Assembly: GCA_017456495.1 (NCBI GenBank)
Contig: JAFTJI010000077.1
Location: 1-58,013 of the forward strand
Source: Lentisphaeria bacterium
GTDB lineage: Bacteria > Verrucomicrobiota > Lentisphaeria > Victivallales > UBA1829
Length of the DNA: 58,013 bases
Direction: 5' to 3'
Numbering within the stretch: position 1 is the first letter of the stretch; every line of letters starts with the position of its first letter. A program made the translations under genes and the position numbers. Below, piece after piece: positions 21,709 to 46,289 of this stretch. The notes below the pieces were generated by a model. It ran no database searches. It worked only from the letters and a program-made list of their open reading frames with translations, and was not told where the DNA came from.

Positions 21709-22476
21709 ATGTTATATGAAATTCATAACGGCGGAAGATTCATTTCCAGAGGGAAAGGGGAACACCCGACACGGATCATTGATACGGATGAGCTGATTTA
21801 TGTTCTTCATGGAACGCTTGATATGTTTGAGGGAGAGCAGCAGTTCAATGTGCGGAAAGGGGAATGGCTGATCCTTCACCGGGGAAAACGGCATGGCGGA
21901 AAAGCATTATATCCGAAAAATCTTTCTTTTTTCTGGCTTCATTTCCGGGATCTTGACGGCTGGCTTGACGGACTTCCGCAGCATGGAAAAATCGAAAATC
22001 CCTCTGCTGTTTCCGTTTATATCCAGAATTTTCTGAATGAGCAAGCCCGTGTTGAACCGGATAAAAAGATACAGGATCTTCTTTTTCAGCTGATTTTTGC
22101 CGAATTGCGGCGGAAAACTGTTCCGGAACCGGACCGGACTCCTCTTGCCATCGCTGCAAAAAATTATGTTGATCTTCATTTTATGGAACCTGTCAATTTG
22201 TGTTCTGCTGCGGAAGAACTCAAGTGCAATACAGAATATCTCGGCAGATTGTTTCATCGGTGTTACGGAGAATCTTTTGTGGCCTATCTGAACCGGAAAC
22301 GGATCGAACAGGCTGCGGGATATCTTGCTGACGGAATATATTCTGTCAAAGAGATCATTGAACTTTGCGGTTTCCGGGATCCAGCCTATTTCCGGCGGAA
22401 GTTCCGTTCCTGTTACAATCAATCTCCGGGGGAATACAGAGATAACCACAGCGGCGGTCATCGTAATACTCTTTGA
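21709..22476 (+). CDS. AraC family transcriptional regulator (cupin sensor plus AraC HTH)
   Basis: It has an N-terminal cupin-like region and a C-terminal HTH (SVKEIIELCGFRDPAYFRRKFRSCYNQSPGEYR). A good RBS (AAAGGAG) lies 11 nt upstream. Confidence 0.88.
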   Translation: MLYEIHNGGRFISRGKGEHPTRIIDTDELIYVLHGTLDMFEGEQQFNVRKGEWLILHRGKRHGGKALYPKNLSFFWLHFRDLDGWLDGLPQHGKIENPSAVSVYIQNFLNEQARVEPDKKIQDLLFQLIFAELRRKTVPEPDRTPLAIAAKNYVDLHFMEPVNLCSAAEELKCNTEYLGRLFHRCYGESFVAYLNRKRIEQAAGYLADGIYSVKEIIELCGFRDPAYFRRKFRSCYNQSPGEYRDNHSGGHRNTL

Positions 22477-22602: not shown

Positions 22603-22652
22603 ACAGAAAAGATAAAAAATACAGAACAAGAAATATGAAAGGAGAATATCTT

Positions 22653-26051: not shown

Positions 26052-26091
26052 TAAAGGTGAAACAAAAAATATAGAATAAAGGAACTGGCTT

Positions 26092-29493: not shown

Positions 29494-29545
29494 TTCGGAT
29501 CATTGAAATCTGAAAAATAATATACAAACCTAACAGGAGGAAAAC

Positions 29546-32500
29546 ATGAGAACTTCGTTGTTAACAGCTGCTTTTGCTGTTACCGCAGCTGCTTCATCGT
29601 TTGGAAATACGATTTCCGACGAGACATTGCTGCGTTTTGCACCAATGCCGAAAGCACCCGTGATCGATGGGCGGATCGACTACAATGAATGGAAGTATGC
29701 TTCCACCACTTTCGGAGGTATCTCTCCGAAAACAAAGTTGATGACCCGCCGTCAAAATGATTTCCGGATCGGTTACGATGCAAAATACATTTATTTTGCA
29801 ATTTCCAGCGAAATCCCTCTTCCGCCCCAGTCTTTAAGCCCGGAAGATCAAGTCGAGTTCCAACTGCTCCCGCCGGGAAAAAAGGAACCTGTCGTAATCA
29901 AATTTGATGTCACTGGAAAAGGAAAAATCCCTGCCGGAGTCAAAGTCCGCAACACGATCGGATATGTTATTATGAACGCAGAGCAGGGGAAATGCTGGAC
30001 AACAGAAATTGCAGTTCCTTATTCCGCTTTGGGCGTTTCAGGAATCAAGTCCGGCGAAAAATGGGGACTTCAGATGATCCGTCACTGGTCCAGCCAGAAG
30101 GAAACCGGATTCTTCCATCTTCCGAAAAAAGCTGGAGAAATGGCAACCTTTATTCCTGATTTCAATGCGCCGACCATCAGTTTCGACGGTTTCGGTCTGC
30201 TGATGTACACCGCAACCGGAAACTACAACTGGACCTATCGTATTGAGAATACCCTGAAACAAGATTTCGGTGTCCATTCTGAAAGTTACCGCTCCGGTGT
30301 CAATGCAGCTGCAACTCTTGACATCAACAATCCCGATCTCTTCGGCAAAGAAGAGAAAGTCCGGATCGGTTACAGTCAGGTGGTCAAACCCGGAAAAACC
30401 GGTTTGTTCCAGCTGCACATGATGGCTCAGTTCCCCGGAAAGCCCCGTCTGCTTTACTCCTTCCTGAAAGGATATAACAATGTTGTTTACTACAAACGCA
30501 CCATGTTCTGGGATGTGATCCTTTCCCAGAGAGCTGCTGTTTATAAAGATGAGCGCGGTCTTCCTTACCTCAATGCCGGTTACTATCCCTCTTTCGGCGA
30601 AAAACTCCGTGTCGCTGCCAGTTTCAACAAGAAACTTCCCATCGTGAATGTTTCTATTACTGTCAGAAACTCCAAAGGAAAAGTCCTTCATACCTTCGCA
30701 AGATCCGGATTCGGACGTCCTCTGGAAGATTTTGAAGATCAGACGATCCTGAAGAATCTCCCTGTTGATGATTACACCGTGACCATGGAATCCATGGACA
30801 TGAACGGAAAAACTTATACTCATGTGAGAACATTCTCCATTGCCAAGTTCCCGTGGCAGGGCTTGAACCTTGGAAAAGAACGGATCATTATTCCGCCGTT
30901 CAAACCCTTGAAAGTCGATAAAAAGAAACAGGAAGTCCATGCTCTGCTGACCGGTTATCAGATCGGCGGCGGTGTCTGGAACGCCATTTATGCTGAAAAT
31001 GAAAATATTCTTGCGGCACCCATCCAGTTCGTGCTGAACGGAAAACCGGTTCCTGCAGGAAAAATCAAATTGCTCTCCGCAGAAAAAGACCGTGTTGTTT
31101 ATGAAGCGACTACGGGCAGCGGAACAGTCAAATTCGTTCTCAATCAGGAATATGATTATGACGGATTCTGCAAACTGACGACCAAAGTCATTCCTCAGGG
31201 GATGGTCAAGGTTACCTCTTTCCAATTGCTGATCCCCATGAAGGCGGAATATGCAAAGTATTACGCTGCTCTTGGTTTCGGAAACAGAACCCGCGGACAG
31301 GGGAAACCTGATACGACCATTCCTGCAGCGCAGGGGGAAATCAAGCTGAATGTCAATCAGCGCAAAGGTTTTATCCTGAATTATTTCTGGTTCGGAACCG
31401 CTTATAAAGGTTTCAGCTGGATCATTGACACTCAGAAAGGGTTCGCGCTTGACAAGAAAAAATACCCGCACCGCATGGAGCGGAAAGGCAATACAGTTGT
31501 CTTTACTCAGGACATCGTGAATATGCCGACCGTCTGGGATAAGCCGTGGGAATTTACTTTTGGTTTCTCTCCCACACCGGTGAAGCCCATCAACAAGAAC
31601 TATCGCAGTCTTTCAACCTGGATGTATGACTATAAGCCTGCCAAAGGTTCTGACAAAGCCAATATGTCGATCCAGCAGCTTCCTCTTGGCGAATATTATG
31701 ATATTCAGGCAACACCTCCGGGTGGAGAAAGCTACTATCTGGATATTGTGAAGAACCGCGGCAGATTTATCCCCCCCGCAGAACGCAAGAAAATGGCAGA
31801 TGAATATATTGCCAAACATAAAGATTGGATCCTGAAAAATGCCCCGATGGCAGATTTCAGCCTCATCCGGAAAATGTTTGAAGATCAGCGTGTCTGGGGC
31901 GACCATTACTTCCTCGTTTACAATGACCCCGCTCATTACTCCTACCGTTGGAAAGAAGCGGAAATGTACAAGGCAGAATGGCTCCCGTGGGATTACCCCG
32001 TGGATGATGCTCTGAACGAATATGTTGCATGCAAAACACCGCAGTATATCGACAAAATGCTTTACGATATGCGCAGATATGCCCGCTGGGGAATCGAAGG
32101 CATGAACTTCGACTGTTTCCCGCTTGGCGGCGGACGGAACACTGTCTCCTGCGGCGCATTCCGCGAAAAGCCCGGTCCGGTGCCGCTGATCTACAACCAT
32201 AACATGCTTCAGATCGCTCCCTATGGAATCGTTCCCTGCCGCAATCTTTTCGGCTGGCGCGAACTTACCAAGAGAACGGCTCATATGCTTTATACCGAAG
32301 GTCGCCTTGTTCATGGTGTGCCCTGGGTAGAACTCCACTCCACAGATTCTGCAGTGCCGGCAGTGACCGCTTTCTGTTCCACTGTGATCACAACCGAATG
32401 TGCTTCTCTCGGAAGTGATTTCTTTGACCGGTTCCCGGAAAGCTATCTGCTGAGTGACCTTGCCGGACTTCAGGCTGGTGTCATGCCCCGTCCCATCGTT

Positions 32501-32938
32501 TCCACCCGTTCATCCAAACTGTCCCGTCAGGAACAGGTGAAATCTCTGATCTCATGGAGTTTCGCCAGCGGTTTGATGACTCATTGCGATCAGGGCGTTC
32601 TGAGAGGTCAGAAAGATTTCCAGGTCATGCGTGACGAAATCTTCAGTTTCGGATTCGGCAGACCGGAAAACAAGACCATTGCGTACTATGACAAAGAACC
32701 TCAGCCCATCAAATGCAAAGCTCCCATGGTTCGGACAACTCAGGTGATCCGTCCTGACGGAAAAACTCTGCTCATGGTCGGTAATATGGGCGACAAAGTG
32801 ACAGCAACGTTTGATCTTTCCGGATTGAACTATAAGAAATACAAAATCACAGATGTCTTTACCGGAAAAGTTCTGCAGAAAGCAGAAGTTGAGCTGTCCC
32901 GTCATGGATATGCTCTGCTGAAGATCGAAAAACTCTGA
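29546..32938 (+). CDS. Secreted ~1130-aa multidomain protein, paralog 3
   Basis: Strong RBS AGGAGG and signal peptide MRTSLLTAAFAVTAAASSFG. Paralog 4 is its closest relative. Confidence 0.85.
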   Translation: MRTSLLTAAFAVTAAASSFGNTISDETLLRFAPMPKAPVIDGRIDYNEWKYASTTFGGISPKTKLMTRRQNDFRIGYDAKYIYFAISSEIPLPPQSLSPEDQVEFQLLPPGKKEPVVIKFDVTGKGKIPAGVKVRNTIGYVIMNAEQGKCWTTEIAVPYSALGVSGIKSGEKWGLQMIRHWSSQKETGFFHLPKKAGEMATFIPDFNAPTISFDGFGLLMYTATGNYNWTYRIENTLKQDFGVHSESYRSGVNAAATLDINNPDLFGKEEKVRIGYSQVVKPGKTGLFQLHMMAQFPGKPRLLYSFLKGYNNVVYYKRTMFWDVILSQRAAVYKDERGLPYLNAGYYPSFGEKLRVAASFNKKLPIVNVSITVRNSKGKVLHTFARSGFGRPLEDFEDQTILKNLPVDDYTVTMESMDMNGKTYTHVRTFSIAKFPWQGLNLGKERIIIPPFKPLKVDKKKQEVHALLTGYQIGGGVWNAIYAENENILAAPIQFVLNGKPVPAGKIKLLSAEKDRVVYEATTGSGTVKFVLNQEYDYDGFCKLTTKVIPQGMVKVTSFQLLIPMKAEYAKYYAALGFGNRTRGQGKPDTTIPAAQGEIKLNVNQRKGFILNYFWFGTAYKGFSWIIDTQKGFALDKKKYPHRMERKGNTVVFTQDIVNMPTVWDKPWEFTFGFSPTPVKPINKNYRSLSTWMYDYKPAKGSDKANMSIQQLPLGEYYDIQATPPGGESYYLDIVKNRGRFIPPAERKKMADEYIAKHKDWILKNAPMADFSLIRKMFEDQRVWGDHYFLVYNDPAHYSYRWKEAEMYKAEWLPWDYPVDDALNEYVACKTPQYIDKMLYDMRRYARWGIEGMNFDCFPLGGGRNTVSCGAFREKPGPVPLIYNHNMLQIAPYGIVPCRNLFGWRELTKRTAHMLYTEGRLVHGVPWVELHSTDSAVPAVTAFCSTVITTECASLGSDFFDRFPESYLLSDLAGLQAGVMPRPIVSTRSSKLSRQEQVKSLISWSFASGLMTHCDQGVLRGQKDFQVMRDEIFSFGFGRPENKTIAYYDKEPQPIKCKAPMVRTTQVIRPDGKTLLMVGNMGDKVTATFDLSGLNYKKYKITDVFTGKVLQKAEVELSRHGYALLKIEKL

Positions 32939-32961
32939 TTTTTCTGATATCAGTATTAAAA

Positions 32962-32993
32962 CCGGAGAACTTTTCAGTTTCTCCGGTTTTTTT
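32962..32993 (+). terminator. Rho-independent terminator after paralog 3
   Basis: CCGGAGAA / TTCTCCGG stem, 9-nt loop, followed by a run of 7 T. Confidence 0.7.
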
Positions 32994-33119
32994 ATTTGGA
33001 AGACATTGACAGCCGGATATTTTACAGCAGAAATGCCGTTTCTTTTGCTTCACGGATTGACTGTTTTTGTCCGGGTTACCTTTTATTCCATAAAAAATGC
33101 TGATTTTTTATGGATTTTT

Positions 33120-33182
33120 GGCGGATAATTCTATTTTTTTTATAAAACAGGTCTTGTTTTTTTCAGGTTTATGGAGTATAAT
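33120..33182 (+). promoter_or_regulatory. Candidate promoter/operator module of the second paralog unit
   Basis: GGCGGATAATTCTATTTTT (33120-33138), TTGTTT (33154-33159) and TATAAT (33177-33182). The spacing matches the 22541-22602 module to within 1 bp. Confidence 0.45.
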
Positions 33183-33229
33183 TCAGTAAAATCTATACAG
33201 AACATTTTTATCATCCGGAGGCATCTTTC

Positions 33230-36200
33230 ATGCAAAAACGATTTTTAATTGCTGCATTGTCAATTTCAACTGCAGTTTCAGCACTGGGTTATTCCCTGTC
33301 AGATGAAACCTTGCTTCGTTTTTCCGCGATGCCTGAAGTTCCGGTTATTGATGGTAAAATCGACTATAATGAGTGGAAATACGCCTCAACAACTTTCGGC
33401 GGAATTTCCCCGAAAACAAAATTGATGACTTTCCGCCAGAATGATTTCAGAATCGGTTATGACGATAAGTTTGTTTACTTTTCCATCACAAGCGAAATTC
33501 CGCTGCCGCCCCAGACTCTTGATAAGGACGATTGCGTGGAATTACAGCTCCTGCCTCCCGGAAAGACGAAACCTGTTGTGATCAAATATGACTATTCCGG
33601 AAAAGGACAGGTTCCTGCAGGTGTGAAAATCAGAAGTTCTATCGCTTATACGACCATGAATGCCGAACAGGGAAAATGCTGGATCACTGAAGCTGCGATC
33701 CCTTATTCTGTCCTTGGCGTTTCCAAATTCAATGACGGGGAAAAATGGGGGCTTCAGATGATCCGTCACTGGTCCAGCAAGAAAGAGACCGGATATTTCC
33801 ATCTTCCGAAAAAGAACGGCGAAATGGCAACTTTTATTCCGGATTCCAAGGCTCCGGTTTGCAGTTTTGACGGATTCGGTCTGCTCATGTATCAGAATGC
33901 CGGAAATTATATGTGGACCTACAGAGCCGAAAATACTCAGAAACATAAATTCGGCGTGATTTCCAAAAGTTACCGTTCCGGTGTCAATGCCGCTGCAACT
34001 CTTGATATCACAAATCCCGACCTCATCGGAAAAGAGGTCAAGGCTCTCATTGCCGGAAACAAAATGCTTAATCCCGGAGAAACTGCTCTGTTCCAGCTCC
34101 ATATGGTGGCTCAGTTCGCCGGAAAACCACGTTTGCTTTACTCTCATCTGAAAGGTTATAATAACATTGATTATTACAAACGGGTGATGTTCTGGGATAC
34201 TTCCATCTCTCAACGGGCGGCAACTTATAAAGATGAGATCGGTCTGCCTTACCTCAATGCCGGTTATTATCCCTCTTACGGAGAAAAGCTCCGTGTTGCG
34301 GCAAGTTTCAATAAAAAACTCCCCATTGCCAATGTGAGCATTACAGTACGGAACTCAAAAGGAAAAGTCCTGCATCGTTTCTCCAGATCCGGTTTCGGTC
34401 GTCCCGTAGAGGATTTTGAAGACGAAGTGATTTTGAAAAATCTGCCCGTGGATAGCTATACCGTGACCATGGAATCCATGGATATGAACGGAAAAACTTA
34501 TAATCATGTCCGGACGTTTGCTATTGCCAAGTTCCCGTGGCAGGGCTTGAATCTCGGAAAAGAACGGATCATTATTCCGCCGTTCAAACCCTTGAAATTG
34601 AATAAACAAACCCGGGAGATCCATGCTTTGCTGACCGGTTACAAGATCGGCGGCGGGATTTGGAATGCTGTTTATGCAGAAGGCGAAAATATCCTCGCAG
34701 CTCCGATTCAGTTTGTGCTGAATGGAAAACCGCTCCCCGCGGGAAATATCAAACTGCTCTCTGCAGAAAAAGATCGCATCGTTTATGAAGCAACTGTAAC
34801 CGAGGGAAAACTTAAACTCATCTTGAATCAGGAGTATGATTATGATGGTTTCTGCAAGTTGACGACAAAGATCATTCCTCTTGCTCCGATCAAGGTCAAA
34901 TCTTTTGAACTGCATATTCCTATGAAAGATAAGTATGCAAAATATTATGCAACGATCCGTGGAAACCGTCCCCGTGCCCAGGGAAAGCCTGACACAACGA
35001 TTCCGGCGGGGCAGGGTGTGCTTGATATCAAAGGTGCTCTGCAGGAAAATGGCAGAGTTATGAACTATTTCTGGTTCGGAACTGCATACAAAGGTTTCAG
35101 CTGGATCATTGATACTCAGAAAGGTTTTTCTATCGAAAAGAAAAAATATCCGCATCGCATGGTTCGGAACGGGAATGCAGTCATCTTTGTCCAGGACATT
35201 GTGAACAGACAGACTGTCTGGGACGCCCCCTGGGAGTTCACATTCGGATTTTCTCCCACACCTGTGAAACCGATCAACAAAAATTACCGTACTCTTTCAA
35301 CCTGGATGTATGATTATCCCCTGCCGACAGGCGCGGATAAATGCAATATGCAGGTCGAACAGCTCCCACTGGGCGATTATTATGATGTTCAGGCTGTGCC
35401 CAATGGCGATGATTATTATTACAGACAGATCGTCGCCAGCCGCGGAAAAGTCATATCTGATGCGGAACGCAACAGAATGGCTGATGCCTATATTGCAAAA
35501 CATAAAGATTGGATCCTGAGAAATGCTCCTCTTGCTGATTTCAGCCTGATCCGGAAACTTTTTACAACCAAGCGCGCCTGGGGCGATCATTATATGCTCA
35601 TGTATAATGACCCGGCTTATTACTCCTATCGATGGAAAGAGGCGGAGATGTACAAGGCTGAATGGCTGCCATTCGATTATCCCGTCGATGATGCGTTGAA
35701 TGAATACGTCGCAAACAAAACTCCGGAATACATCGACAAGATGCTGTGGGAAATGCGCCGTTATGTCCGTTGGGGGCTCGATGGTATGAATTTTGACTGC
35801 TTCCCGCTGGGCGGAGGAAGAAATACCGTCTCAATGGGTGCTTTCCGTGAAAAGCCCGGAAGAGTTCCTTTGATGTACAATCATAACATGCTTCAGTTCG
35901 TTCCGGAAGGAATCATTTATGCCAGAAACTTTTTCGGATGGCGTGAACTGACCAAGAGAACGGCTCACATGCTTTATACCGAAGGAAAACTCATCCATGG
36001 TGTCCCCTGGGTGGAACTTCATGCAACTGATGCGGCAGTTCCGGCAGTTGCGGCATTCTGTTCAACGGTAATTACTATGGAATGCGGTTCTGCCGGGAAA
36101 GATTATTTCGACCGTTTCCCCGAAAGTTATGTGTTGAGTGACCTTGCCGGAACTCAGGCTGGTGTTGCGCCGCGTCCCATCGTTTCCACTCATTCTACCA

Positions 36201-36622
36201 AATTGACCCGCGCAGAACAGGTCAAGTCTCTCATCAGCTGGATCTTCGCCTATGGTATGATGAACTATTGCGATCAGGGCGTTTTGAAAGGACAGAAAGA
36301 TTTCCGGGTTCAACGGGATGCAATTTTCGGTTTCGGTTATGGCAGACCTCAGAACAAAACCATTGCTTTCTATGATAAAGAACCTCAGCCGATTACCTGC
36401 AATGCTCCCATGGTCCGGACAACTCAGGTGATCCGCCCCGATGGAAAAGCTCTGCTCATGATCGGTAATACCGGAGATAAAGTCAAGGTGAAATTTGATC
36501 TCTCCGGGTTGAAGTATGGAAAATATAAAGTGACGGATCTGTTTACCGGAAAGGTTCTGACAAGTACAGAGCTGGAACTGCCCCGTCACGGTTATGCACT
36601 TTGGAAAATAGAAAAACTTTGA
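33230..36622 (+). CDS. Secreted ~1130-aa multidomain protein, paralog 4
   Basis: RBS GGAGG and signal peptide MQKRFLIAALSISTAVSALG. It is homologous end to end with the other four. Confidence 0.85.
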   Translation: MQKRFLIAALSISTAVSALGYSLSDETLLRFSAMPEVPVIDGKIDYNEWKYASTTFGGISPKTKLMTFRQNDFRIGYDDKFVYFSITSEIPLPPQTLDKDDCVELQLLPPGKTKPVVIKYDYSGKGQVPAGVKIRSSIAYTTMNAEQGKCWITEAAIPYSVLGVSKFNDGEKWGLQMIRHWSSKKETGYFHLPKKNGEMATFIPDSKAPVCSFDGFGLLMYQNAGNYMWTYRAENTQKHKFGVISKSYRSGVNAAATLDITNPDLIGKEVKALIAGNKMLNPGETALFQLHMVAQFAGKPRLLYSHLKGYNNIDYYKRVMFWDTSISQRAATYKDEIGLPYLNAGYYPSYGEKLRVAASFNKKLPIANVSITVRNSKGKVLHRFSRSGFGRPVEDFEDEVILKNLPVDSYTVTMESMDMNGKTYNHVRTFAIAKFPWQGLNLGKERIIIPPFKPLKLNKQTREIHALLTGYKIGGGIWNAVYAEGENILAAPIQFVLNGKPLPAGNIKLLSAEKDRIVYEATVTEGKLKLILNQEYDYDGFCKLTTKIIPLAPIKVKSFELHIPMKDKYAKYYATIRGNRPRAQGKPDTTIPAGQGVLDIKGALQENGRVMNYFWFGTAYKGFSWIIDTQKGFSIEKKKYPHRMVRNGNAVIFVQDIVNRQTVWDAPWEFTFGFSPTPVKPINKNYRTLSTWMYDYPLPTGADKCNMQVEQLPLGDYYDVQAVPNGDDYYYRQIVASRGKVISDAERNRMADAYIAKHKDWILRNAPLADFSLIRKLFTTKRAWGDHYMLMYNDPAYYSYRWKEAEMYKAEWLPFDYPVDDALNEYVANKTPEYIDKMLWEMRRYVRWGLDGMNFDCFPLGGGRNTVSMGAFREKPGRVPLMYNHNMLQFVPEGIIYARNFFGWRELTKRTAHMLYTEGKLIHGVPWVELHATDAAVPAVAAFCSTVITMECGSAGKDYFDRFPESYVLSDLAGTQAGVAPRPIVSTHSTKLTRAEQVKSLISWIFAYGMMNYCDQGVLKGQKDFRVQRDAIFGFGYGRPQNKTIAFYDKEPQPITCNAPMVRTTQVIRPDGKALLMIGNTGDKVKVKFDLSGLKYGKYKVTDLFTGKVLTSTELELPRHGYALWKIEKL

Positions 36623-36649: not shown

Positions 36650-37426
36650 ATGAAAAAAAGTATCATTCTCTCTTCAATGTTGACTGTTGCATGTTTCGCA
36701 GGTGCCGCAGAATATGTTTTTGATTCTCAGGCAGATTGCAGATTGGAAGGCGGAAAAAGACTGGAATTCAAGGATGGATGCCATGTCCTGAAAGGTGCCT
36801 GCCATTTCATGACAGATAAAGCTTTTACCAATAATCCGGCAAAAAAGTATAAACTGTTTGCAGATATCAAGCGCGGAACCAACCAGAAAACCAGTGGCTT
36901 GACTTTTGCAGTCATGTATCTTGATGAAAAAGGAAGAACGATCCAGACCCGTGAATATCTGACGGTTCCCAACTCCTTTACCGAACTTGCAAAGCCGATG
37001 AAGCCCACTGATAAGGTTATCACACTCAAGAAACCTGCAAATTTCAAAAAAGGTTACAACTGGCCCGTCGTTGTCGCTTTTGAAGCAAAAGCAGATGAAT
37101 CTGATATTCCCAACCCCAAAGTTACCACCAAAACCAGCAAGGTGGTGATTGGTGCAGATACCATTACAGTGACTCTTGACAAGCCGACTTTTGCAGCTTA
37201 TCCTGCCGGAACAAAAGTCAGACTCCACTATGCTCTGGCTTTCTACCGTCCGCTGAATATCGACAAGTTCTACAACCATCCTACAGACAAATGGGTTACC
37301 ATCGGCGGCGATGTCCCCATGCCCAAAGGCGTGAAAAAATTCAAACCCGTTATCGTCTACTATGACTGGGCTAAAGGTACCACAAAAACCGTTCTGGTCC
37401 GCAACTTCAAGCTCATTGAGGAATAA
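36650..37426 (+). CDS. Secreted 258-aa protein of unknown function (beta-rich, possibly a binding module)
   Basis: RBS AAAGGAAAA and signal peptide MKKSIILSSMLTVACFAGA. I recognise no family motif. Confidence 0.7.
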   Translation: MKKSIILSSMLTVACFAGAAEYVFDSQADCRLEGGKRLEFKDGCHVLKGACHFMTDKAFTNNPAKKYKLFADIKRGTNQKTSGLTFAVMYLDEKGRTIQTREYLTVPNSFTELAKPMKPTDKVITLKKPANFKKGYNWPVVVAFEAKADESDIPNPKVTTKTSKVVIGADTITVTLDKPTFAAYPAGTKVRLHYALAFYRPLNIDKFYNHPTDKWVTIGGDVPMPKGVKKFKPVIVYYDWAKGTTKTVLVRNFKLIEE

Positions 37427-37429
37427 GAA

Positions 37430-38566
37430 ATGAAAAAGATTCAGACAGCCGTTTATTATTTCCCCAACTACCATGTGGATCCCCGGAATGAAGCTGTTCA
37501 TGGACAGGGATGGACCGAATGGGAACTCATGAAAGTCGCGCGTCCCCGTTTTGAAGGACATGATCAGCCGAAGGTCCCTCTTTGGGGATATGAAGACGAG
37601 GCAGATCCCGCAGTAATGGCAAAAAAAATCGACGTCGCTGTAGAACATGGTGTCGATGCGTTTATCTTTGACTGGTACTGGTACGAAGGACCCTATCTGG
37701 AACGCTGTCTGAAAGAAGGTTTCCTCGGCGCGCCCAATAATGACAAAATGAAATTTGCTCTTATGTGGGCGAACCATGACTGGAAGAATTTCCATCCGGG
37801 CGGACGGGATACGAAAAACTATCCCATCAACTTCCCGTGGAGTACCCGCCGGGAAACTGTCGGATACGTCTGGGATTATATCATTGAAAACTTCATGACC
37901 AAGCCAAATTACTGGCGCGTGGATGGTCTGCCGTACTTCTCCATTTATGCTGTGAACCGTTTTATTGGTCAGATGGGCGGCGTGGAAGCAACCGCAGAAG
38001 TTCTCGCTGAGTTCCGTGAAAAAGCCGTCAAAGCCGGTTTGCCCGGAATCCATATCGGCGGTATCTGGTTTGACGTTCTCGACAGTCATCCGGCTTACTC
38101 CGAATGTCCTCAGGCTGACTGGGCAAACAAACTCGGTTTCTCCAGCTACACCAGTTACAACAACTGCTGCACGACTGATGAATGGTTCCGGAACTTCCCG
38201 CACATTGATTACGATAAATCTGCGGAAGAGTACTATCAGATCGCCCGCAAGGCTATGACAACTCTTCCCGCACCGTATCACCCCGTTGTAACTGCCGGAT
38301 GGGATTCCACGCCACGCTGTACGCAGTCTGAAGTTTATGATGCCAAGCCGTCCTATCCCTATCTTGGTGTGATGCAGCCCACTCCTGAAAAATTCGGAAA
38401 AGCCGTTGCAGAAACAGTAAAGATTTTGAAAGAATATGCTGCAGATAATCCGATTTTCTTCATCAACGCATGGAACGAATGGACAGAAGGAAGCTATCTG
38501 GAGCCTGACACCCGGTTCGGTATGGCTGTATTGGAAAACCTGAAAAAAGAACTTGCTTTACAATAA
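37430..38566 (+). CDS. WbsX / GH99-like domain protein (PF14307-type), no signal peptide
   Basis: [15 protein letters not shown]...[32 protein letters not shown] and [15 protein letters not shown] resemble the WbsX/GH99-like TIM-barrel family. Confidence 0.65.
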
Positions 38567-38588: not shown

Positions 38589-39386
38589 ATGAAAAGAATG
38601 AACCCCGCCTGCAGGCGGGTAAAGCACCAGTGCTTTACCTTGATAGAGCTGTTAGTGGTAATTGCAATCATCGCGATTCTTGCAGGAATGCTTCTGCCTG
38701 CTTTGAACAGTGCCAGAGAAAAAGGAAGAAGTTCTTCGTGTGTGAATAATTTGAAAGGCATTGGAACTGCTCAGGCAATGTATTCTGATGATCACGACGG
38801 TTGGATTCTTCCCTGTAGAATGCCAAATTATGAAGAGTCTCAGGATCAGTGGTTTATGGTTCTTTCAGGCGTTGACAGTTCCGGTGTGAAAAGCAAAAAA
38901 TATGCCGGATGGGGAGTCGCTTTTTATGGGCTAAATAATCCAAAAGGATCTTTTTATTGTCCTTCTGCCAATCCGAAAGTGAAATATGGCTGCACAACAT
39001 ATGGCATCAACCGTTTTTTGCTGGGAGATGACGGAGTTGGTTATTACGCCAGAAAAACTTCATGTGTAACCAGTGCAGCTTCAGCTGTTTTTTCTGCAGA
39101 TTTATCTCATACAGGAACTTATCGTATGCATGATTCCGGATCTTTGGCATTCCGTCATGGCGGCGATCCCGGAGATGGTGTCCGTGGGCTCGGTTCGGGA
39201 TACAATCTTAAATCCGGTGGAGCTGGTTATACTCCCGCCGGAAAGACGAACGTCCTTTATTTTGACGGTCATGTTTCAAGCTTGAGCTTGCAGCAGGTGA
39301 TGATCCTTGATGGCGGGATTAATAACCATAAATTCATAAAGTCTACAGGTTTTAATCCTGATCAGAAAAGTGCCCCGTTGATGTAA
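38589..39386 (+). CDS. Prepilin-type N-terminal domain protein of the DUF1559 / H-X9-DG class (pseudopilin-like)
   Basis: [32 protein letters not shown] at the N-terminus and [10 protein letters not shown] near the C-terminus. I set the start at the ATG at 38589, after AAAAGAGG. Confidence 0.85.
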
Positions 39387-39405
39387 AACCACATGAAATG
39401 GTACG

Positions 39406-39443
39406 GCATAACAAAGCTGCTTGAAAAATTATCTTTGTTATGC
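39406..39443 (+). other. Perfect 11-bp stem hairpin between the two pseudopilin-like genes
   Basis: GCATAACAAAG, 16 nt, CTTTGTTATGC. No clear T-tract follows, so its function is unclear. Confidence 0.3.
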
Positions 39444-39493
39444 TGGATTGTATAGTGAACACCCCCAAAAAAATTTTATATAGGAGTTTGAAA

Positions 39494-40306
39494 ATGGAAA
39501 GAGCAGGCAGGACTTTTTGCAGCAGGTTTACTTTGATCGAATTGTTAGTTGTTATCGCAATCATTGCGATTCTTGCCGGCATGCTGTTGCCCGCATTGAA
39601 CAGTGCCAGAGAAAAAGGGCGCAGTGCCAGCTGTACCAATAATTTAAACACGATCGGCAAAGCTCAGGCTATGTATTCTGCGGATCATGATGACTGGATC
39701 CTGCCCAGCCGTATGCCGAATTATGATGGCAATTACGACCAGTGGCATATGGTGCTTTCCGGAAAAGATACCAGTGGAAAAAAGAATCCGAAATATGCCG
39801 GTTGGGGGGCAAGTTTCCACGGAGATTTCAGATACGCAGGAAAAGGAAAAACCTGTACTTTTACCTGCCCGACGGCGAATCCGAATGTTGCCTGGACAAC
39901 AACTCATTATGCCCACAACCGTTTTTTACTGGGAGATGTCAAAGAGGATGGGGTCCAAAAAGTTTTTGCCAGAAAAACTTCTTGCGTAACCTCCGCATCT
40001 TCAGTAATTTTTGCCAGCGACCTGGTCAATAAAGGAGGTTCTTATTTGCATGATATGGCATCATCTTCATACCGTCATGGCGGGAGTGGAGATCCCGGTG
40101 ATGGAACACGGGGAGTCGGAACAGGTTGGCATTAAAAAAACAATAAATTAGGTTATATTCCGTCAGGCAGGACAAATATCGTTTACTTTGATGGTCATGT
40201 TCATTCCATGTCCGTTGCAGAAGCTGTTGCCTTTGAAGGTAATGTTGATGGCAAACTTCTGAAAACCGGCTGGAATGATGTCCGCGGTCCGGAGTGGGCT
40301 TATTAA
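39494..40306 (+). pseudogene. Second DUF1559 / H-X9-DG pseudopilin-like gene, interrupted by an in-frame TAA at 40133-40135
   Basis: The ORF 39494-40135 ends ...GVGTGWH-stop. The same frame then continues KNNKLGYIPSGRTNIVYFDGHVHSM... to a TAA at 40304-40306, colinear with the intact neighbour. Confidence 0.75.
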
Positions 40307-40326
40307 AATAGTGTTTTCTCTGAAAA

Positions 40327-40354
40327 AACTCCTGAAAGGTTCTGTTCAGGAGTT
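40327..40354 (+). terminator. Weak terminator/attenuator-like hairpin upstream of paralog 5
   Basis: AACTCCTGAA / TTCAGGAGTT form a 10-bp stem with an 8-nt loop, followed by a short T run that partly lies within the stem extension. Confidence 0.35.
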
Positions 40355-40386
40355 TTGGGCACTTATTCTAATCTTCAGGAGTCAAA

Positions 40387-43300
40387 ATGAAGAAAATATT
40401 TTCTGCTGTTGTCCTTTTTGCGGCAGTGAGTATATTCGGGAATCCAATGTCCGATAAAACCATTTTACGCTTTGCTGCCATGCCTGCGGCTCCGGTGATA
40501 GATGGAAAAATCGGTGTCGATGAATGGAAATATGCCTCAACGACCTTTGGCGGGATCTCTCCGGAAACTGGATTGATGACACGCCGCCAGAATGATTTCC
40601 GTCTGGGGTATGATGCAAAAAACATTTACGTTGCTATTACCAGCGAAACACCTCTTGCTCCCCAGCCTCTTACAGACGCGGATCGCGTGGAGTTCCGTTT
40701 CATCGCCCCCGGAAAACAGACTCCTGTTGTGATTTCTTTTGACAGCACAGGGAAAGGAAATATCCCTGCCGGAGTGATCGTGAAAAACGGTATTGATGTT
40801 GCCTTGATGAACTCCGAACAGGGCAAATGCTGGACCGCTGAAGTTGCGATTCCCCTTTCCGTCTTCGGTCTCACTTCTATTCAAGATGGAGAGGAATGGA
40901 AATTCCAGATGATGCGTCATTGGTCAAGCCGGAAGGAAACAGGATATTTCCACAATCCGAAAAGGAATAATGAAATGGCGACCTTTATTCCGGATCGGAA
41001 CGCCATGATTGTCAGCTTTGACGGTTTCGGACATCATATGTATCCCGCAACCGGAAACTACAATTGGACCTACCGGATTGAGAATCCGCACAACTTTAAA
41101 GCCTATGTTCACTCCAACAGTTTCCGATCCGGGTTGAATGGCGCTCCAACCCTTGACATCAATAATCCTGATCTTCTTGGCAGTGAAACAAGAGTCCGGA
41201 TCGGTTACAGTGCGTTGCTCCATCCCGGAAAAACGGAGTATTTCCGTCTTTACATGATGGCTCAGTTCCCCGGAAAAGCACGCTGTCTTTACTCTCAAAT
41301 CGTTGATAATACGAAAGAACGCCGTCCGCTTTATCAGCGTGTGATGTTCTGGGATACTGTTCTGTCCCAGCGTGCAGCCGTTTATCAGGATGAAGTCGGT
41401 TATCCCTACTTGAGCAGCGGTTTTTATCCCTCTTACGGAAACAAGCTCCGGGTCGCTGCAACATTCAATCCGAAATTGCCTGTCGGTTATGCGGAGATCA
41501 ATGTCCGGGATTCCAAAGGAAAGGTCATACATACATTCCGAAAGAGCAATTTCGGCAAGGCGTTAAAAGATTTTGAAGACCAGACTGTCCTTCCGGAACT
41601 TCCCCTGGGTGATTACACTGTGACAATGGATACCATCGCTCTGGATGGCAGAAAATTCAGTCATACAAGAACCTTTTCTGTCCGCAAGTTTGCATGGCAG
41701 GGATTGAATCTTGGAAAAGACCGGGTAATCATTCCGCCTTTCAAGCCTTTGAAGTACAGCTCTGTGTTCAGCAAAGAAGTTCATTCCCTGCAGACCGGCT
41801 ACAAACTCGGTGACGGGATCTGGCAGGAGATCTATGCGGAAAAAGAGAATATCCTTGCTGCGCCTGTTCAGCTTTTTCTTGACGGTAAACCCGTCAAAGC
41901 CGATTCCATCAAGCTGATTTCTGCCGCAAAAGATCAGATCGTCTTTGAAACCTCTTCCAAAATGGAGAAAGTAAAATTTGTTCTGCGTCAGGATTACGAT
42001 TATGACGGATTCTGCAAGGTGACTGTAACAATGATTCCGGATGGAACAGTCAAAGTCAAAAACTTTGAACTGCGCATCCCCCTGAAAAATAAAATTGTAA
42101 AATATTACTCGTCTTTGCACGGAAACCGCCGCCGTGGTCAGGGAAAAGTCGATTGGTCTGTCCCGAAAGGCGAGGGGGAACTCAACATGTCTGCTTTTGT
42201 TCACTCAAAAGGACGAATCCAGAATTACTTCTGGATGGGTGGGGAATATAAAGGGCTTGGCTGGATCATTGATACCCAGAAAGGGTTCTCTCTGAACCGG
42301 AATACTGTCCCTTACAGAATCGTTCGCAAGGGGGATACTCTCACCTACATAATGGATATCGTGAACATCCCGGCAGAATGGAAAAACTCCTGGAGTTTTG
42401 AAATCGGTTTCATCCCCACTCCTGTTAAACCCCAGAACAAACGTTATCGTGCAATCTCCCAGCCGATGTATGACTATCCTACTGCTGAAGGTTCTGTCGC
42501 AGCCGGTATGATGAATGTCTTCCAATGGCCCCTGGATTACAGCTATGACATCAACCAGTTCCCCAATGGAGATGATTCCTACTACCGTACGATCCTTGCC
42601 AGCCGCGGTAAAAAGGTTACTGAGCCCCAACGGAAAAAATATGCTGATGATTATATTGCACGGAATCAAGAGTGGATCTTGAAACATGCTCCGCTTACAG
42701 ACTTGAATGTGATCTGGAAAAAGTTCTATGACCGCCGCGTTTATGGCGAAGATTACTTTCTGATGTATCATAATCCGGCTTACTATTCCTGCCGCTGGAG
42801 AGAAGCTGAGATGTATAAAGCAGAATGGCTTCCGTGGGATTATCCTGTGGATGATGCCCATAATGAGTATATCGCATGCCAAACCCCGGAATACATTGAT
42901 AAAATGCTGTGGGAAATAAAAAAACAGATCGATTACGGTTTCGATGGCATGAACTTTGACTGTTTCCCCCTTGGCGGCGGGTTTAACACCGTTTCAATGA
43001 AAGCCTTCCGGGAACATCCGGGAAGTGCGCCGATCATCAGTAATGCCAACATGCTTCAGACGGCATCAGCAGGAATCAATCATGTAACCAATCTGTTCGG
43101 CTGGCGCGAATTGATGAAACGGACTGCTCATCTGCTTTATGTCAATAACCGTCTGGTCTTCGGCGTTCCCTGGGTCGAGGTTCACGATACCAATGTTCAG
43201 CCTGTCTGTATTGCCTCTTTCTGTTCCACTGTAATAACTACAGAATGCGGCAGCGGCGGAAAAAGTTACTTTGACCGTTTCCCGGAAGGCGCAGTTCTTG

Positions 43301-43785
43301 GGGATATCGCCGGGCTTCAGTCCGGTGTCGTTCCCCGGACGATCTTTTCCACTTCATCCGGTAAAATTTCCAAAGCGGAACAAATCAAGAGTTTGATTGC
43401 CTTCTCCTTTGCATATGGTCTGATGAATCATGTTGATCAGGGCGTGACAAGAGGTTACAAAGATTACCGGATTGCCAGAGATGAAGTTTTTTCATTCGGT
43501 TACGGCAGACCGGAAAACAGAACTATTGCATTTTATGACGCTGAAAAGCAGCCCATTACCTGTAATGTGAAATCCATCCGTACAACGCAGGTGATCCGCC
43601 CGGATGGAAAAGCTCTCCTGATGGTTGGTAATACCGGCGATAAAGTCAAGGTCAAGTTTGATTTCTCCGGGTTGAAGTATGGGAAATACAAGATCACAGA
43701 TGTTTTTACCGGAAAAGTTCTGCCGTCTGCGGAAATCGAAGTCCAGCGTCATGGCTATGCTTTACTGAAAATCGAAAAACTTTAA
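40387..43785 (+). CDS. Secreted ~1130-aa multidomain protein, paralog 5
   Basis: RBS CAGGAG and signal peptide MKKIFSAVVLFAAVSIFG. Paralog 1 is its closest relative. Confidence 0.85.
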   Translation: MKKIFSAVVLFAAVSIFGNPMSDKTILRFAAMPAAPVIDGKIGVDEWKYASTTFGGISPETGLMTRRQNDFRLGYDAKNIYVAITSETPLAPQPLTDADRVEFRFIAPGKQTPVVISFDSTGKGNIPAGVIVKNGIDVALMNSEQGKCWTAEVAIPLSVFGLTSIQDGEEWKFQMMRHWSSRKETGYFHNPKRNNEMATFIPDRNAMIVSFDGFGHHMYPATGNYNWTYRIENPHNFKAYVHSNSFRSGLNGAPTLDINNPDLLGSETRVRIGYSALLHPGKTEYFRLYMMAQFPGKARCLYSQIVDNTKERRPLYQRVMFWDTVLSQRAAVYQDEVGYPYLSSGFYPSYGNKLRVAATFNPKLPVGYAEINVRDSKGKVIHTFRKSNFGKALKDFEDQTVLPELPLGDYTVTMDTIALDGRKFSHTRTFSVRKFAWQGLNLGKDRVIIPPFKPLKYSSVFSKEVHSLQTGYKLGDGIWQEIYAEKENILAAPVQLFLDGKPVKADSIKLISAAKDQIVFETSSKMEKVKFVLRQDYDYDGFCKVTVTMIPDGTVKVKNFELRIPLKNKIVKYYSSLHGNRRRGQGKVDWSVPKGEGELNMSAFVHSKGRIQNYFWMGGEYKGLGWIIDTQKGFSLNRNTVPYRIVRKGDTLTYIMDIVNIPAEWKNSWSFEIGFIPTPVKPQNKRYRAISQPMYDYPTAEGSVAAGMMNVFQWPLDYSYDINQFPNGDDSYYRTILASRGKKVTEPQRKKYADDYIARNQEWILKHAPLTDLNVIWKKFYDRRVYGEDYFLMYHNPAYYSCRWREAEMYKAEWLPWDYPVDDAHNEYIACQTPEYIDKMLWEIKKQIDYGFDGMNFDCFPLGGGFNTVSMKAFREHPGSAPIISNANMLQTASAGINHVTNLFGWRELMKRTAHLLYVNNRLVFGVPWVEVHDTNVQPVCIASFCSTVITTECGSGGKSYFDRFPEGAVLGDIAGLQSGVVPRTIFSTSSGKISKAEQIKSLIAFSFAYGLMNHVDQGVTRGYKDYRIARDEVFSFGYGRPENRTIAFYDAEKQPITCNVKSIRTTQVIRPDGKALLMVGNTGDKVKVKFDFSGLKYGKYKITDVFTGKVLPSAEIEVQRHGYALLKIEKL

Positions 43786-43797
43786 AGGAAATTTGTA

Positions 43798-45402
43798 ATG
43801 CGGGATGAACGGGTAATTGACTATATAACACCGGTGCGTATTGTCGCCTCGGAGCATTGCGGGAACACTCAAATTCTGCTGAAAGAATCTCCGGGGCAGG
43901 CTTCAACATCTGCCAGACCGGAGTGTATCCTTGAACCGGGAGGTTGGATCGTTCTGGATTTCGGACGTGAATATTATGGCGGAATTGAACTCGTTTTTGG
44001 AGCATTCGAAGAGTCCATGCGGCACGTTTTGCTGACATTTGGAGAATCTGTTGCCGAAACGTTTTCGCATCCCAGGCACGGTCATTCGGTTCAGGAAACG
44101 ATGCTCTCTTTCCCCGCATGGAGTGTCATTACTTTCGGAAAACTTGCATTCCGGTTTGTAAAACTTGAAAATACAAACAGTTATCCAGTCGGGATTCAGG
44201 GGATCCGGGCATCGTTTCTGCATCGGGAATTCTCTGCTGAAGCCTCGTTCCGCTGTTCCGATCCGCTTTTGAATGAGATCTGGAATGCCTCCGCATGGTC
44301 TCTGAAACTCTGCATGCAGGATTATATGTGGGACGGCGCAAAGCGTGATCAGCTTGTTTGGATGGGTGATCTTCTGCCGGAGCTTTTTACCTGTGCAACC
44401 CTGTTCGGACATCAGGAAATAGCAGAAAAGAGTCTGGATTATCTCCGTGATGAGACTCCTTTGCCGCAAATGATGAACGGTTGCGGAACATATTCGTTCT
44501 GGTGGATCATCGGGCAGGGATTCTGGTATCGTCGGTTCGGGTCACTTGAATATTTGAGAATGCAGCATGATTATTTAAAGGGATTGGTGACACTTCTCGC
44601 CGGAATGATTTCTGAGAATGGCGATCTTCAGCTGAAAGGCGGCTATCAGCTTCTGGATTGGGCAACAGGTATTGGCGTTGATGACGGACCCGCCATCCGA
44701 GCCGGATCTCATGCAATTTTACGATTGGCGTTTCTTGCCGGTGCTGAGCTATGCCGTGTTCTCAATGATGAAGAAACCGCATTGATTTGTGATGCCGCTG
44801 CGGAAAATTTATTGCGGAAACCGTTGCCGTTGTCGCACAGTACCGCTGCCAATGCGTTTCAGGTTCTTGCAGGGTTCCGGGATGCAAAAGAAGTTTATGA
44901 CCAGTGTTTCTCTGGGAATTTACCTCATGGCTTGTCAACATTCCTCGGCTGCTTCGTTCTGGATGCCTGTGCAAAAGCCGGACACCGGAAAGAGGCTTTG
45001 GAGTATATGCGTCAATACTGGGGCGGGATGCTGTCTGTCGGTGCGACCTCATTCTGGGAACATTTCGATCTGGACTGGCTGAAAGATGCCGGACGGATTG
45101 ATGAGCTTGTTCCTGAAGGGAAGCATGATATTCACGGTGAATATGGTGAAGGCTGTTTCAAGAGTTACCGGAACAGCTTCTGTCACGGTTGGGGTTCCAT
45201 GCCGGCAGAGTGGCTCTCACGGCAAATTTGCGGCGTAGACTTCGTTGATTCCCGGACGATCCATTTTATGCCTGATCTCTGCGGACTTGAGTGGGTCGAG
45301 GCAGATTTTCCTGTTTCCAATGGAATGATCCGGGTTCATCTCTCATCAGAAAAACAGGATATATCCGTTCCGGAAGGTTTTACCGTTATACGGCAGAACT
45401 GA
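43798..45402 (+). CDS. Six-hairpin glycosidase related to GH78 alpha-L-rhamnosidases (short form, cytoplasmic)
   Basis: WDGAKRDQLVWMGD resembles the GH78 DCPxRDExxGWTGD block, and SFCHGWGSMPAEWL resembles the C-terminal GH78 block. There is no signal peptide. Confidence 0.55.
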   Translation: MRDERVIDYITPVRIVASEHCGNTQILLKESPGQASTSARPECILEPGGWIVLDFGREYYGGIELVFGAFEESMRHVLLTFGESVAETFSHPRHGHSVQETMLSFPAWSVITFGKLAFRFVKLENTNSYPVGIQGIRASFLHREFSAEASFRCSDPLLNEIWNASAWSLKLCMQDYMWDGAKRDQLVWMGDLLPELFTCATLFGHQEIAEKSLDYLRDETPLPQMMNGCGTYSFWWIIGQGFWYRRFGSLEYLRMQHDYLKGLVTLLAGMISENGDLQLKGGYQLLDWATGIGVDDGPAIRAGSHAILRLAFLAGAELCRVLNDEETALICDAAAENLLRKPLPLSHSTAANAFQVLAGFRDAKEVYDQCFSGNLPHGLSTFLGCFVLDACAKAGHRKEALEYMRQYWGGMLSVGATSFWEHFDLDWLKDAGRIDELVPEGKHDIHGEYGEGCFKSYRNSFCHGWGSMPAEWLSRQICGVDFVDSRTIHFMPDLCGLEWVEADFPVSNGMIRVHLSSEKQDISVPEGFTVIRQN

Positions 45403-45416
45403 AAGAGTTGTGGCTC

Positions 45417-46289
45417 ATGAAAGAATATTTATCCAGCAAGATGTTTACGGATCCGGAGTTCCCCGTGGCGGTTTCCCGTCTGCTCCAGCGGTCCCAAATG
45501 ACACCGCACACCCATGATTTTATCGAATTTGTACTTGTCGCGGAAGGTCATACGATCCATCGTGTTGGTGCGGAAGGGGATTCTCTTTCCTATGGCTTGA
45601 TCCAGGGGGATTGCTTTACGATCCTTCCCGGGGAAGTTCATGCTTATTCCGACAGTAAAAACCTTGTTTTGTACAACGTCGCCTTCAAGGAAGAACTGCT
45701 TCAGAGTGTTCTTTCCGAGCTGAAGCAGTTGCCCATGTGGTCAAGATTGTTTGAATCCGGCAACTCTCCGCTGAGTAAACGGTTGCATTTACTGCCCCAT
45801 GAACGGATCAGAGCGGAAAGTTTTCTCCGGAAGATGATGTTGGAATTTTCTTACCGCCGTCCGGGATATCAATTCCGGGTAAAACTTGCATTGATGGAGA
45901 TGCTTTGCGCTGTTGATGATGCCAATATCGTTGAATGGCAGCCTTATGATGTGGAACCTTACAGCGGTTTGCTGAAAACTCTGGATTATCTGGAAAAAGT
46001 GGAAAGTGAGCCCTTCAATTTGACGGAACTTTCCCGTATGGCAGGGATGAGCGTCTCTTCTTATACAAAAAAATTCCGGGAAATGATCGGGGATTCTCCC
46101 TGCGAATATTTTCTCGGGATCAAACTGGAAAAAATCCGGAGTGAGCTTCTCCGGTCTGATATTTCCGTTTCAGAACTTGCTTTTAAATACGGCTTCTGCG
46201 ATACGTCTTATATGATAAAATTATTCCGTCGCAGGCATGGTTTGACCCCCACGCGTTACCGGAATATCATCATGTCAAAATCTAAATAA
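45417..46289 (+). CDS. AraC family transcriptional regulator (second copy, at the 3' end of the paralog operon)
   Basis: It has a cupin-like N-terminus (HTHDFIEFVLVAEGH) and an AraC HTH (VSELAFKYGFCDTSYMIKLFRRRHGLTPTRYR). I set the start at the ATG at 45417. Confidence 0.85.
   Translation: MKEYLSSKMFTDPEFPVAVSRLLQRSQMTPHTHDFIEFVLVAEGHTIHRVGAEGDSLSYGLIQGDCFTILPGEVHAYSDSKNLVLYNVAFKEELLQSVLSELKQLPMWSRLFESGNSPLSKRLHLLPHERIRAESFLRKMMLEFSYRRPGYQFRVKLALMEMLCAVDDANIVEWQPYDVEPYSGLLKTLDYLEKVESEPFNLTELSRMAGMSVSSYTKKFREMIGDSPCEYFLGIKLEKIRSELLRSDISVSELAFKYGFCDTSYMIKLFRRRHGLTPTRYRNIIMSKSK

Follow-up and report, generated by a model that had tools for sequence, protein, structure and literature searches.

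The 58,013-nucleotide (nt) contig JAFTJI010000077.1 of a Lentisphaeria bacterium (assembly GCA_017456495.1; Victivallales, UBA1829), here called the window, contains two adjacent genes, gene 1 and gene 2, for proteins with the N-terminus of type IV pilins. They lie between a WbsX-like gene and the fifth of five paralogs of ~1130 amino acids (aa), and all positions are collected in Table 1. Their sequences place both genes in a large subfamily of type IV pilin-like proteins that is specific to Lentisphaeria and akin to the DUF1559/H-X9-DG proteins of the Planctomycetota-Verrucomicrobiota-Chlamydiota (PVC) bacteria, and genes of this subfamily are regularly found in glycan-degradation operons under substrate control. 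Gene 1 is intact and has a ribosome-binding site (AAGAGG) 7-8 nt upstream. Gene 2 most likely starts at position 39494, with AGGAG 8 nt upstream, and its copy in the window is a broken allele. The pilin-type N-terminus of 24 residues is identical in the two proteins and is preceded by KHQC in gene 1 and by FCSR in gene 2. The layout of the proteins is a variable, positively charged leader, the near-invariant 24-residue module and a variable head of ~220 residues, with a conserved pair of Cys residues and the core RHG...N..[YF].DGH as its framework.

The relationship to pilins was examined with profile searches. PF07963 (N_methyl) gave 30.8 bits for gene 1 (E = 1.8e-7) and 21.2 bits for gene 2 at a cut-off of 21.2, and TIGR02532 gave 21.9 and 21.7 bits, respectively (cut-off 16.3). 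The alignments to both profiles began at Phe(+1) and left the Gly position of the models unmatched. A family profile built from 91 relatives matched solved type IV pilins, the best being Thermus PilA (6xxd, E = 2.8e-17 over 105 residues). Because every profile match started at the mature F1 of the solved pilins, aligned to F16 of gene 1, F16 is the homolog of the pilin +1 residue. Both genes thus have the Phe(+1), the Glu(+5) and the following hydrophobic stretch by which prepilins are recognised. The marginal scores for PF07596 (DUF1559, SBP_bac_10), 24.1 and 23.9 bits at a cut-off of 23.3, came from profile positions 2-35 of 268 only. The most suitable classification of the proteins is as a Lentisphaeria variant within the DUF1559/H-X9-DG pilin-like superfamily.

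Among the 91 relatives, F16 and E20 were invariant and most of the 24-residue module was invariant or nearly so. When the first 33 mature codons of gene 1 and gene 2 were compared, 16 synonymous and no non-synonymous differences were found. Judged from these codons, the 24-residue module is kept by protein-level (purifying) selection. Gene conversion was also considered as the origin of the identical 33 N-terminal residues and was ruled out by the 16 synonymous differences. In the head, Cys51, Cys124 and His228 were invariant, and Arg189, His190, Asn221, Asp226 and Gly227 were near-invariant. The AlphaFold2 model of gene 1 (pLDDT, the predicted local distance difference test, 95.5) consisted of a 51-residue N-terminal helix (residues 18-68) and four short strands, and the only pilin match of the full-length model in Foldseek was a weak one (3sok, E = 0.066). 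A disulfide probably links the long helix to the loop region through the invariant Cys pair (C51, C124). The near-invariant His/Asp/His cluster adjoins an Asp-rich loop and could be a candidate metal site (positions 38739-39272, gene 1).

The residue before the predicted cleavage site (-1) was surveyed in three samples. In the best 120 database relatives (35-98% identity, 114 scored), Gly(-1) was found once, the commonest residues being Asn, Cys, Ser, Thr, Arg and Lys. An independent set of 131 further proteins was obtained by a head-domain-only search of 1.84 billion representatives, and 6 of 121 representatives had Gly(-1). Phyla were compared in 80 loci from species-representative genomes, together with a scan of GTDB (at least 600 matched stretches), in which the best match reached 55% identity, confined to the N-terminus. 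Gly or Ala was present at -1 in 35/35 Verrucomicrobiota and 18/18 Planctomycetota genes; the Lentisphaerota genes had Gly in 4/46 cases and otherwise almost any residue. Given that Gly is scarce in Lentisphaerota and that Gly or Ala is universal in the sampled genes of the other two phyla, the Gly-less site is a phylum trait. In the Verrucomicrobiota and Planctomycetota loci (L009-L083), Ala(-1) was nearly as frequent as Gly(-1) (23 versus 30), so that Ala(-1) seems to be widely accepted in PVC bacteria.

These data bear on the possibility that the prepilin-like segment in Lentisphaerota is a plain N-in signal anchor that is never cleaved and builds no filament, the heads being tethered periplasmic helpers, for instance chaperones, binders of oligosaccharides or partners of enzymes. 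We regard this as rather unlikely. It would be compatible with an unconstrained -1 position (K, S, R, T, N, C, I, L, D and others), with leaders that range from 2 to more than 60 residues across the family, with the retention of Gly/Ala(-1) in the relatives from Verrucomicrobiota and Planctomycetota, and with the lack of machinery genes near the pilin-like genes in any sampled locus. An anchor of this kind, however, would not need an invariant Phe(+1) and Glu(+5), nor a 24-residue sequence under purifying selection across hundreds of paralogs, and a charged Glu would be a burden in a membrane anchor if it served no purpose. Furthermore, a Gly(-1) gene was found in the same kind of context as the other genes (L008, Table 1), which suggests one functional class.

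The second feature examined was the distance between His and DG, which the original prediction had put at about 35 residues. H190 (RHGG) and D226 (YFDGHV) of gene 1 are indeed 35 residues apart, the corresponding distance in gene 2 is 37, and in both genes Pro stands where the canonical motif calls for His, 10 residues ahead of the Asp. TIGR04294 (H-X9-DG) stayed below its cut-off in both (15.8 and 15.5 bits versus 19, positions 6-22 of 22; 7-22 in gene 1). In 105 of 107 close relatives the canonical His was absent and [FY]RHG stood 22-38 residues upstream of DGH, and in the independent sample the median RH...DGH gap was 28 (10-90% range 25-33.5). Given that the long spacer is common here and that canonical H-X9-DG spacing is frequent elsewhere (in other Lentisphaerota paralogs and in Verrucomicrobiota and Planctomycetota genes), the long spacer marks a subfamily. 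This subfamily was defined by Cys51...Cys124, [FY]RHG, 22-38 residues and N..[YF].DGH with any -1 residue, a definition that fits genes 1 and 2, 105/107 close relatives and the 131 further representatives. It comprises ~700 clusters at 50% identity, with gene 1 at its long end, within a very large wider family (at least 7994 matches scored).

Both features had been described as atypical beforehand. The observations themselves, Cys (gene 1) and Arg (gene 2) at -1 and ~35 residues between H and DG, were correct, but the description was not: a non-Gly residue is the rule across Lentisphaerota, and long spacing is the rule in the head-domain subfamily. The family alignments showed both as the norm, an outcome that had been named in advance as refuting the claim. 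These details are ordinary for the lineage, and the lineage-wide pattern is the part worth following up.

Genes 1 and 2 are separated from each other by 107 nt, gene 1 from the WbsX-like gene by 22 nt and gene 2 from the fifth paralog by 80 nt, and signal peptides were found in all five ~1130-aa paralogs as well as in the 258-aa protein upstream of the WbsX-like gene. A Pfam scan of all large open reading frames (ORFs) of the window further identified GH127-, GH2-, GH78-, GH4- and GHL6-like genes, sulfatase-related, ABC transporter and housekeeping genes; no PilB, PilC, PilD, PilQ or Gsp genes were found among these ORFs. Coordinates and translations, the profile matches described above and the Pfam scans thus agree with the original prediction of two adjacent pilin- or pseudopilin-like genes between the WbsX-like gene and the fifth paralog, in a window lacking pilus and secretion genes. 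The further suggestion, that they are co-transcribed with glycan-active genes away from secretion or pilus machinery, was supported and is probably correct.

The arrangement was not confined to the window. In a 97.5%-identical strain (L001) the gene order is the same and gene 2 is intact. A more distant relative (L004), with a pilin-like gene (P0007) that shares 63% identity with gene 1, has retained the 258-aa and WbsX-like genes, a pair of pilin-like genes, the rhamnosidase-like gene, the AraC regulator and GH2, and lacks the fifth paralog. In all eleven neighbourhoods inspected, a regulator (AraC, GntR or LacI) was followed by 1-7 pilin-like genes and then by a large exported enzyme (Table 1), the partner proteins without family assignment being 580-1450 aa long. 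We also considered whether the Gly(-1) genes are the 'real' pilins of a machinery, but the only one examined, in L008, sits among glycoside hydrolases like the rest.

In 32 sampled Lentisphaerota loci, genes within two positions of a pilin-like gene (98 genes; 107 for the size comparison) were compared with genes more than 5 kb away (93 genes, mostly housekeeping). With crude ORF calling and with family counts taken from the 25 most frequent families, so that the figures are indicative only, the Peripla_BP_3 domain occurred in 12 near genes versus at most 1 distant gene (p = 0.003), sugar-type regulators in 18/98 versus at most 2/93 (p = 2e-4), and proteins of at least 600 aa in 32/107 versus 7/93 (p = 6e-5). 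Chance adjacency, in which two of hundreds of copies happened to fall in a cluster of carbohydrate-active enzymes, is therefore very improbable: the near neighbours differ significantly from the distant genes, L004 has the pair in the same position and the same cassette was present in 11/11 inspected neighbourhoods. What speaks for chance is the size of the family, with its thousands of scored matches and at least 600 GTDB stretches, and the fact that the region is rich in such enzymes anyway. The prediction that the adjacency is more than coincidence was thus upheld by the conserved order in L001 and L004, the eleven cassettes and the near-gene enrichment in the sampled loci.

Table 1. Positions of the two pilin-like genes, their parts and neighbours in the window, and pilin-like genes in other loci (L numbers).
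Feature	Position or locus	Strand	Basis or remark
Gene 1, intact pilin-like protein, 265 aa	38589-39386	+	ORF, translation, PF07963/TIGR02532, AlphaFold2 model
Gene 1 leader peptide, Cys at -1	38589-38633	+	mature F1 of solved pilins aligns to gene 1 F16
Double hairpin in gene 1 leader coding region	38604-38639	+	RNA fold, covariation, covariance model
Gene 1 shared N-terminal assembly module, F1 to L24, Glu at +5	38634-38705	+	
Gene 1 RHGG...35 residues...DGH (R189 to H228), including Gly/Asp-rich loop	39153-39272	+	block pLDDT 95-98
Gene 2, pilin-like paralog, Arg at -1, 270 codons, stop-interrupted	39494-40306	+	translation; intact ortholog P0016 in L001
Divergent central block of gene 2, codons 97-241	39782-40216	+	comparison with L001
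Single in-frame TAA in gene 2 (Leu codon in L001 ortholog)	40133-40135	+	
AraC-family regulator heading the cluster	21709-22476	+	
Paralogs 1-4 of ~1130-aa family, signal peptide in all	22635-36622	+	
258-aa exported protein, no Pfam match	36650-37426	+	same gene order in relatives
WbsX-like gene directly upstream of gene 1	37430-38566	+	PF14307, E = 1.7e-54
12-bp perfect hairpin AAAACTCCTGAA / TTCAGGAGTTTT, between gene 2 and fifth paralog	40325-40356	+	z = -2.27
Fifth ~1130-aa paralog, Sec signal peptide, directly downstream of gene 2	40387-43785	+	partial GH123_N match
Rhamnosidase-like six-hairpin gene, then second AraC-family regulator	43798-46289	+	same order in L004
Further copies of the leader double hairpin	L085 10028-10075; L088 10064-10111; L128 10049-10096		
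Further copy of the leader double hairpin	L128 7291-7340	-	
Further copies of the leader double hairpin	L045 ~2340-2375; L067 ~3525-3560		
Seven pilin-like genes in tandem, then two ~850-aa proteins	L085		
GH130, pilin-like gene, 581-aa protein	L088		
Two pilin-like genes flanked by two GH9 genes	L090		
GntR, pilin-like gene, GH123_N; also AraC, pilin-like gene, DUF4838, CE15	L091		
GntR, pilin-like gene, 1321-aa carbohydrate-binding module (CBM) protein; also GntR, 267-aa pilin-like protein (FTLIE N-terminus), GH5	L092		
Pilin-like gene at head of sialidase, SSF transporter, NanA-like operon	L093		
GntR, pilin-like gene, 1106-aa protein; also pilin-like gene and two similar-sized genes, then DUF4838	L128		
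LacI-type regulator, pilin-like gene, 1450-aa protein	L130		1450-aa protein full length in L129
Gly(-1) pilin-like gene among GH42-, GH95-, GH78-like genes and DUF4838 gene	L008		

Several observations were made on the neighbouring genes. In the five ~1130-aa paralogs the match to GH123_N is partial (positions 366-516 of 969), and a homolog in L091 (4527-7802) also has a pilin-like gene upstream; the paralogs may represent an undescribed glycoside hydrolase family. Many large proteins directly downstream of the pilin-like genes in L085, L088, L128 and L129/L130 had no Pfam match, the sizes of such proteins being 581, 841, 851, 953, 1106 and 1450 aa. The seven tandem pilin-like genes in L085 (10001-15661) are all different and lie behind a GntR regulator, and the ~850-aa proteins that follow were not assigned by Pfam; the tandem could be a complete custom subunit set. 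With the GTG start listed for it, the second AraC-family ORF (45291-46289) shares 112 nt with the gene before it. Given that the homolog in L004 has 289 aa, the real start in the window is probably further downstream. The hairpin at 40325-40356 is a possible weak terminator or RNA processing site.

The low conservation of gene 2 between strains is confined to one part of the gene. Gene 2 is 88.4% identical to its copy in L001, compared with 96-100% for its neighbours, and of its codons 76 were changed (45 synonymous and 31 non-synonymous), almost all within codons 97-241; the WbsX-like gene had 45 synonymous changes and a single non-synonymous one. Nucleotide divergence in the gene 2 block was ~20%, the flanks were ~100% identical and the in-frame TAA was located inside the block. 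The block looks as if it had been recombined or were hypervariable. Uniform pseudogene decay as the cause of the low identity was ruled out, given that the changes lie in one block with near-identical flanks.

The leader coding region of gene 1 contains a double hairpin, with CCCGCC-TGCA-GGCGGG as hairpin 1 and GGTAAAGCA-CCAG-TGCTTTACC as hairpin 2. The 3' arm of hairpin 2 consists of the -1 Cys codon and TTT ACC, and the encoded leader is ACRRVKHQC. The same 37 nt were identical in paralogs of 35-42% protein identity, the copy in L110 reads the element in a different frame, and in other leader classes, such as those of L045, L067 and the copy on the minus strand of L128, different sequences fold into analogous hairpins. 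In 13 non-redundant copies 91.7% of the cells were paired, a percentage inflated by a sample that was partly chosen by pattern, and compensatory changes were seen in 6/13 pairs. None of 500 shuffles reached this pairing, and 32-52% was paired in slid controls. The first base of the -1 codon covaried with its partner (GCA/TGC for Cys, GCT/AGC for Ser and GCG/CGC for Arg). Given that the -1 codon both pairs and covaries in the hairpin, the -1 Cys of gene 1 is partly set by a nucleic-acid constraint.

Leader hairpins were present in 15/143 non-redundant genes versus 1.2 expected, and in none of the Verrucomicrobiota or Planctomycetota loci sampled. With a covariance model, all sense-strand matches of at least 19 bits were in pilin leaders, the others being antisense copies of the same palindromic sites. 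A metagenome scan with the hairpin pattern gave 34 matches, 5 in pilin leaders and the rest unrelated GC-rich matches. The leader of gene 2 formed no hairpin when folded. A scan of the window at Rfam gathering thresholds gave no match, indicating that the leader hairpin is not a described RNA family.

Taken as a whole, we tentatively favour, with a probability of roughly 45%, that the pilin-like proteins of each operon are its own adaptor subunits on a common secretion or pilus machine and serve the export or surface display of the co-induced enzymes. The cognate sugar would induce the operon including its pilin-like gene or genes, and the protein would be inserted into the inner membrane and cleaved at Phe by a prepilin peptidase that does not need Gly(-1). 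Assembly of the protein, via the shared module, would then fall to a type II secretion or type IV pilus machine whose genes lie elsewhere, and the variable head would act as the operon-specific adaptor coupling the co-expressed exported enzymes to export or display. Given that hundreds of paralogs share one identical module, a common partner machinery and packing among the paralogs are probable, and the invariant Glu(+5) argues for filament-type assembly over a plain anchor. Since -1 is free to vary, the peptidase would have to recognise the +1 side, or else processing has been lost.

Operon linkage serves equally well a reading in which the heads bind the polysaccharide of the operon and the glycan is tethered or drawn to the cell by a retractile fibre resembling a type IV pilus, by analogy with DNA uptake by the competence pseudopilus or with pilin adhesion to cellulose or chitin. 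Such glycan capture or uptake, the role put forward in the original prediction, is unlikely in our estimate, although it is a close second to the enzyme adaptor. The invariant Phe(+1) and Glu(+5) would fit filament assembly, and the sequences are nearer to type IVa pilins than to GspG. The planctomycete Fimbriiglobus ruber adheres to chitin with the help of type IV pili, and the selfish import of polysaccharides by PVC bacteria is unexplained (PMC11131199); Kiritimatiella lacks TonB-dependent glycan uptake systems (PMC5148204). In Foldseek, however, the head showed no structural similarity to a lectin or a carbohydrate-binding module, and a capture fibre seems unnecessary for small-sugar operons such as the sialidase, SSF transporter and NanA-like operon of L093.

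Several points weigh against the enzyme-adaptor reading. TIGR01710 (GspG) stayed below its cut-off (32.3 and 33.3 bits versus 88.85), with the N-terminal ~55 residues aligning. The head modelled alone (pLDDT 96.7) gave no significant PDB match in Foldseek (best E = 1.9), so that its fold gives no functional hint. Characterised prepilin peptidases require Gly(-1), and the absence of this residue could mean that processing never takes place. Neither secretion or pilus machinery nor a prepilin peptidase was located for the lineage in the window and the sampled loci. The enzyme adaptor is preferred to a glycan binder on gene order alone, the role being a predicted one, and the enrichment figures are, as stated, indicative.

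A wider form of the adaptor reading, which we consider doubtful, is a modular 'pilin-per-operon' system in which hundreds of subunits with one module and a Gly(-1)-independent peptidase would each be a co-induced, substrate- or enzyme-specific adaptor of a single machine, the RNA double hairpin adding post-transcriptional control in part of the family. If true, this would be a functional counterpart of the Sus-type loci of Bacteroidota and the first function for the DUF1559 superfamily.

Victivallis and other Lentisphaeria degrade fibre in gut and rumen, and the function of these proteins bears on the workings of this neglected group of glycan degraders. One whole Lentisphaeria branch is wired into sugar-regulated enzyme operons and has dropped the Gly(-1) rule, which offers a testable lead on function. 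In a literature search, neither the Gly-less site nor the long-spacer subfamily, operon cassette or leader hairpin of Lentisphaerota was found described. The DUF1559/H-X9-DG proteins are among the largest paralog families of PVC bacteria, with 68 copies in Planctopirus limnophila, and no function has been assigned to them (PMC10632474). It is likewise open how PVC bacteria organise export and import around their many glycan-degrading enzymes (PMC11131199, PMC5148204).

When compared with known systems, the proteins resemble the DUF1559/H-X9-DG family (PF07596, TIGR04294) in the prepilin-like N-terminus, the conserved Cys in the long helix, the C-terminal hydrophobic strand followed by DG(H/S) and the very large paralog families. 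They differ from its Planctomycetota and Verrucomicrobiota members in that -1 is Gly or Ala there (53/53) and almost any residue here, and in the H-to-DG spacing of 9 there versus 25-35 in the present subfamily. With the pseudopilins of type II secretion systems (GspG-K) they share the N-terminal hydrophobic module with Glu(+5), a size of at most ~250 aa, a link to the export of degradative enzymes and an expected dependence on a peptidase and an assembly ATPase. Unlike GspG-K, they align to GspG (TIGR01710) in the N-terminal helix only, their genes are scattered in catabolic operons rather than collected in a gsp operon, there are hundreds of paralogs and Gly(-1) is missing. Among solved structures, type IVa pilins gave both the best sequence match (Thermus thermophilus PilA, 6xxd) and the best, albeit weak, fold match (Dichelobacter nodosus FimA, 3sok), but the present head is about twice as large and without the helix there is no significant structural match.

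SusD-like proteins and surface glycan-binding proteins (SGBPs) provide a non-catalytic surface component beside the enzymes in each substrate-specific, regulated locus of Bacteroidota. The likeness to such loci would lie in organisational logic only; fold and machinery are unrelated and there are no SusC/D genes here. Pilin-like proteins that bind cellulose occur in Ruminococcus albus and Fibrobacter, and the type IV pili of F. ruber on chitin (PMC11131199) also tie pilin-like proteins to polysaccharide use. In these organisms, however, one or a few pilins belong to a dedicated pilus, whereas the Lentisphaeria proteins are operon-specific paralogs distributed over many enzyme loci.

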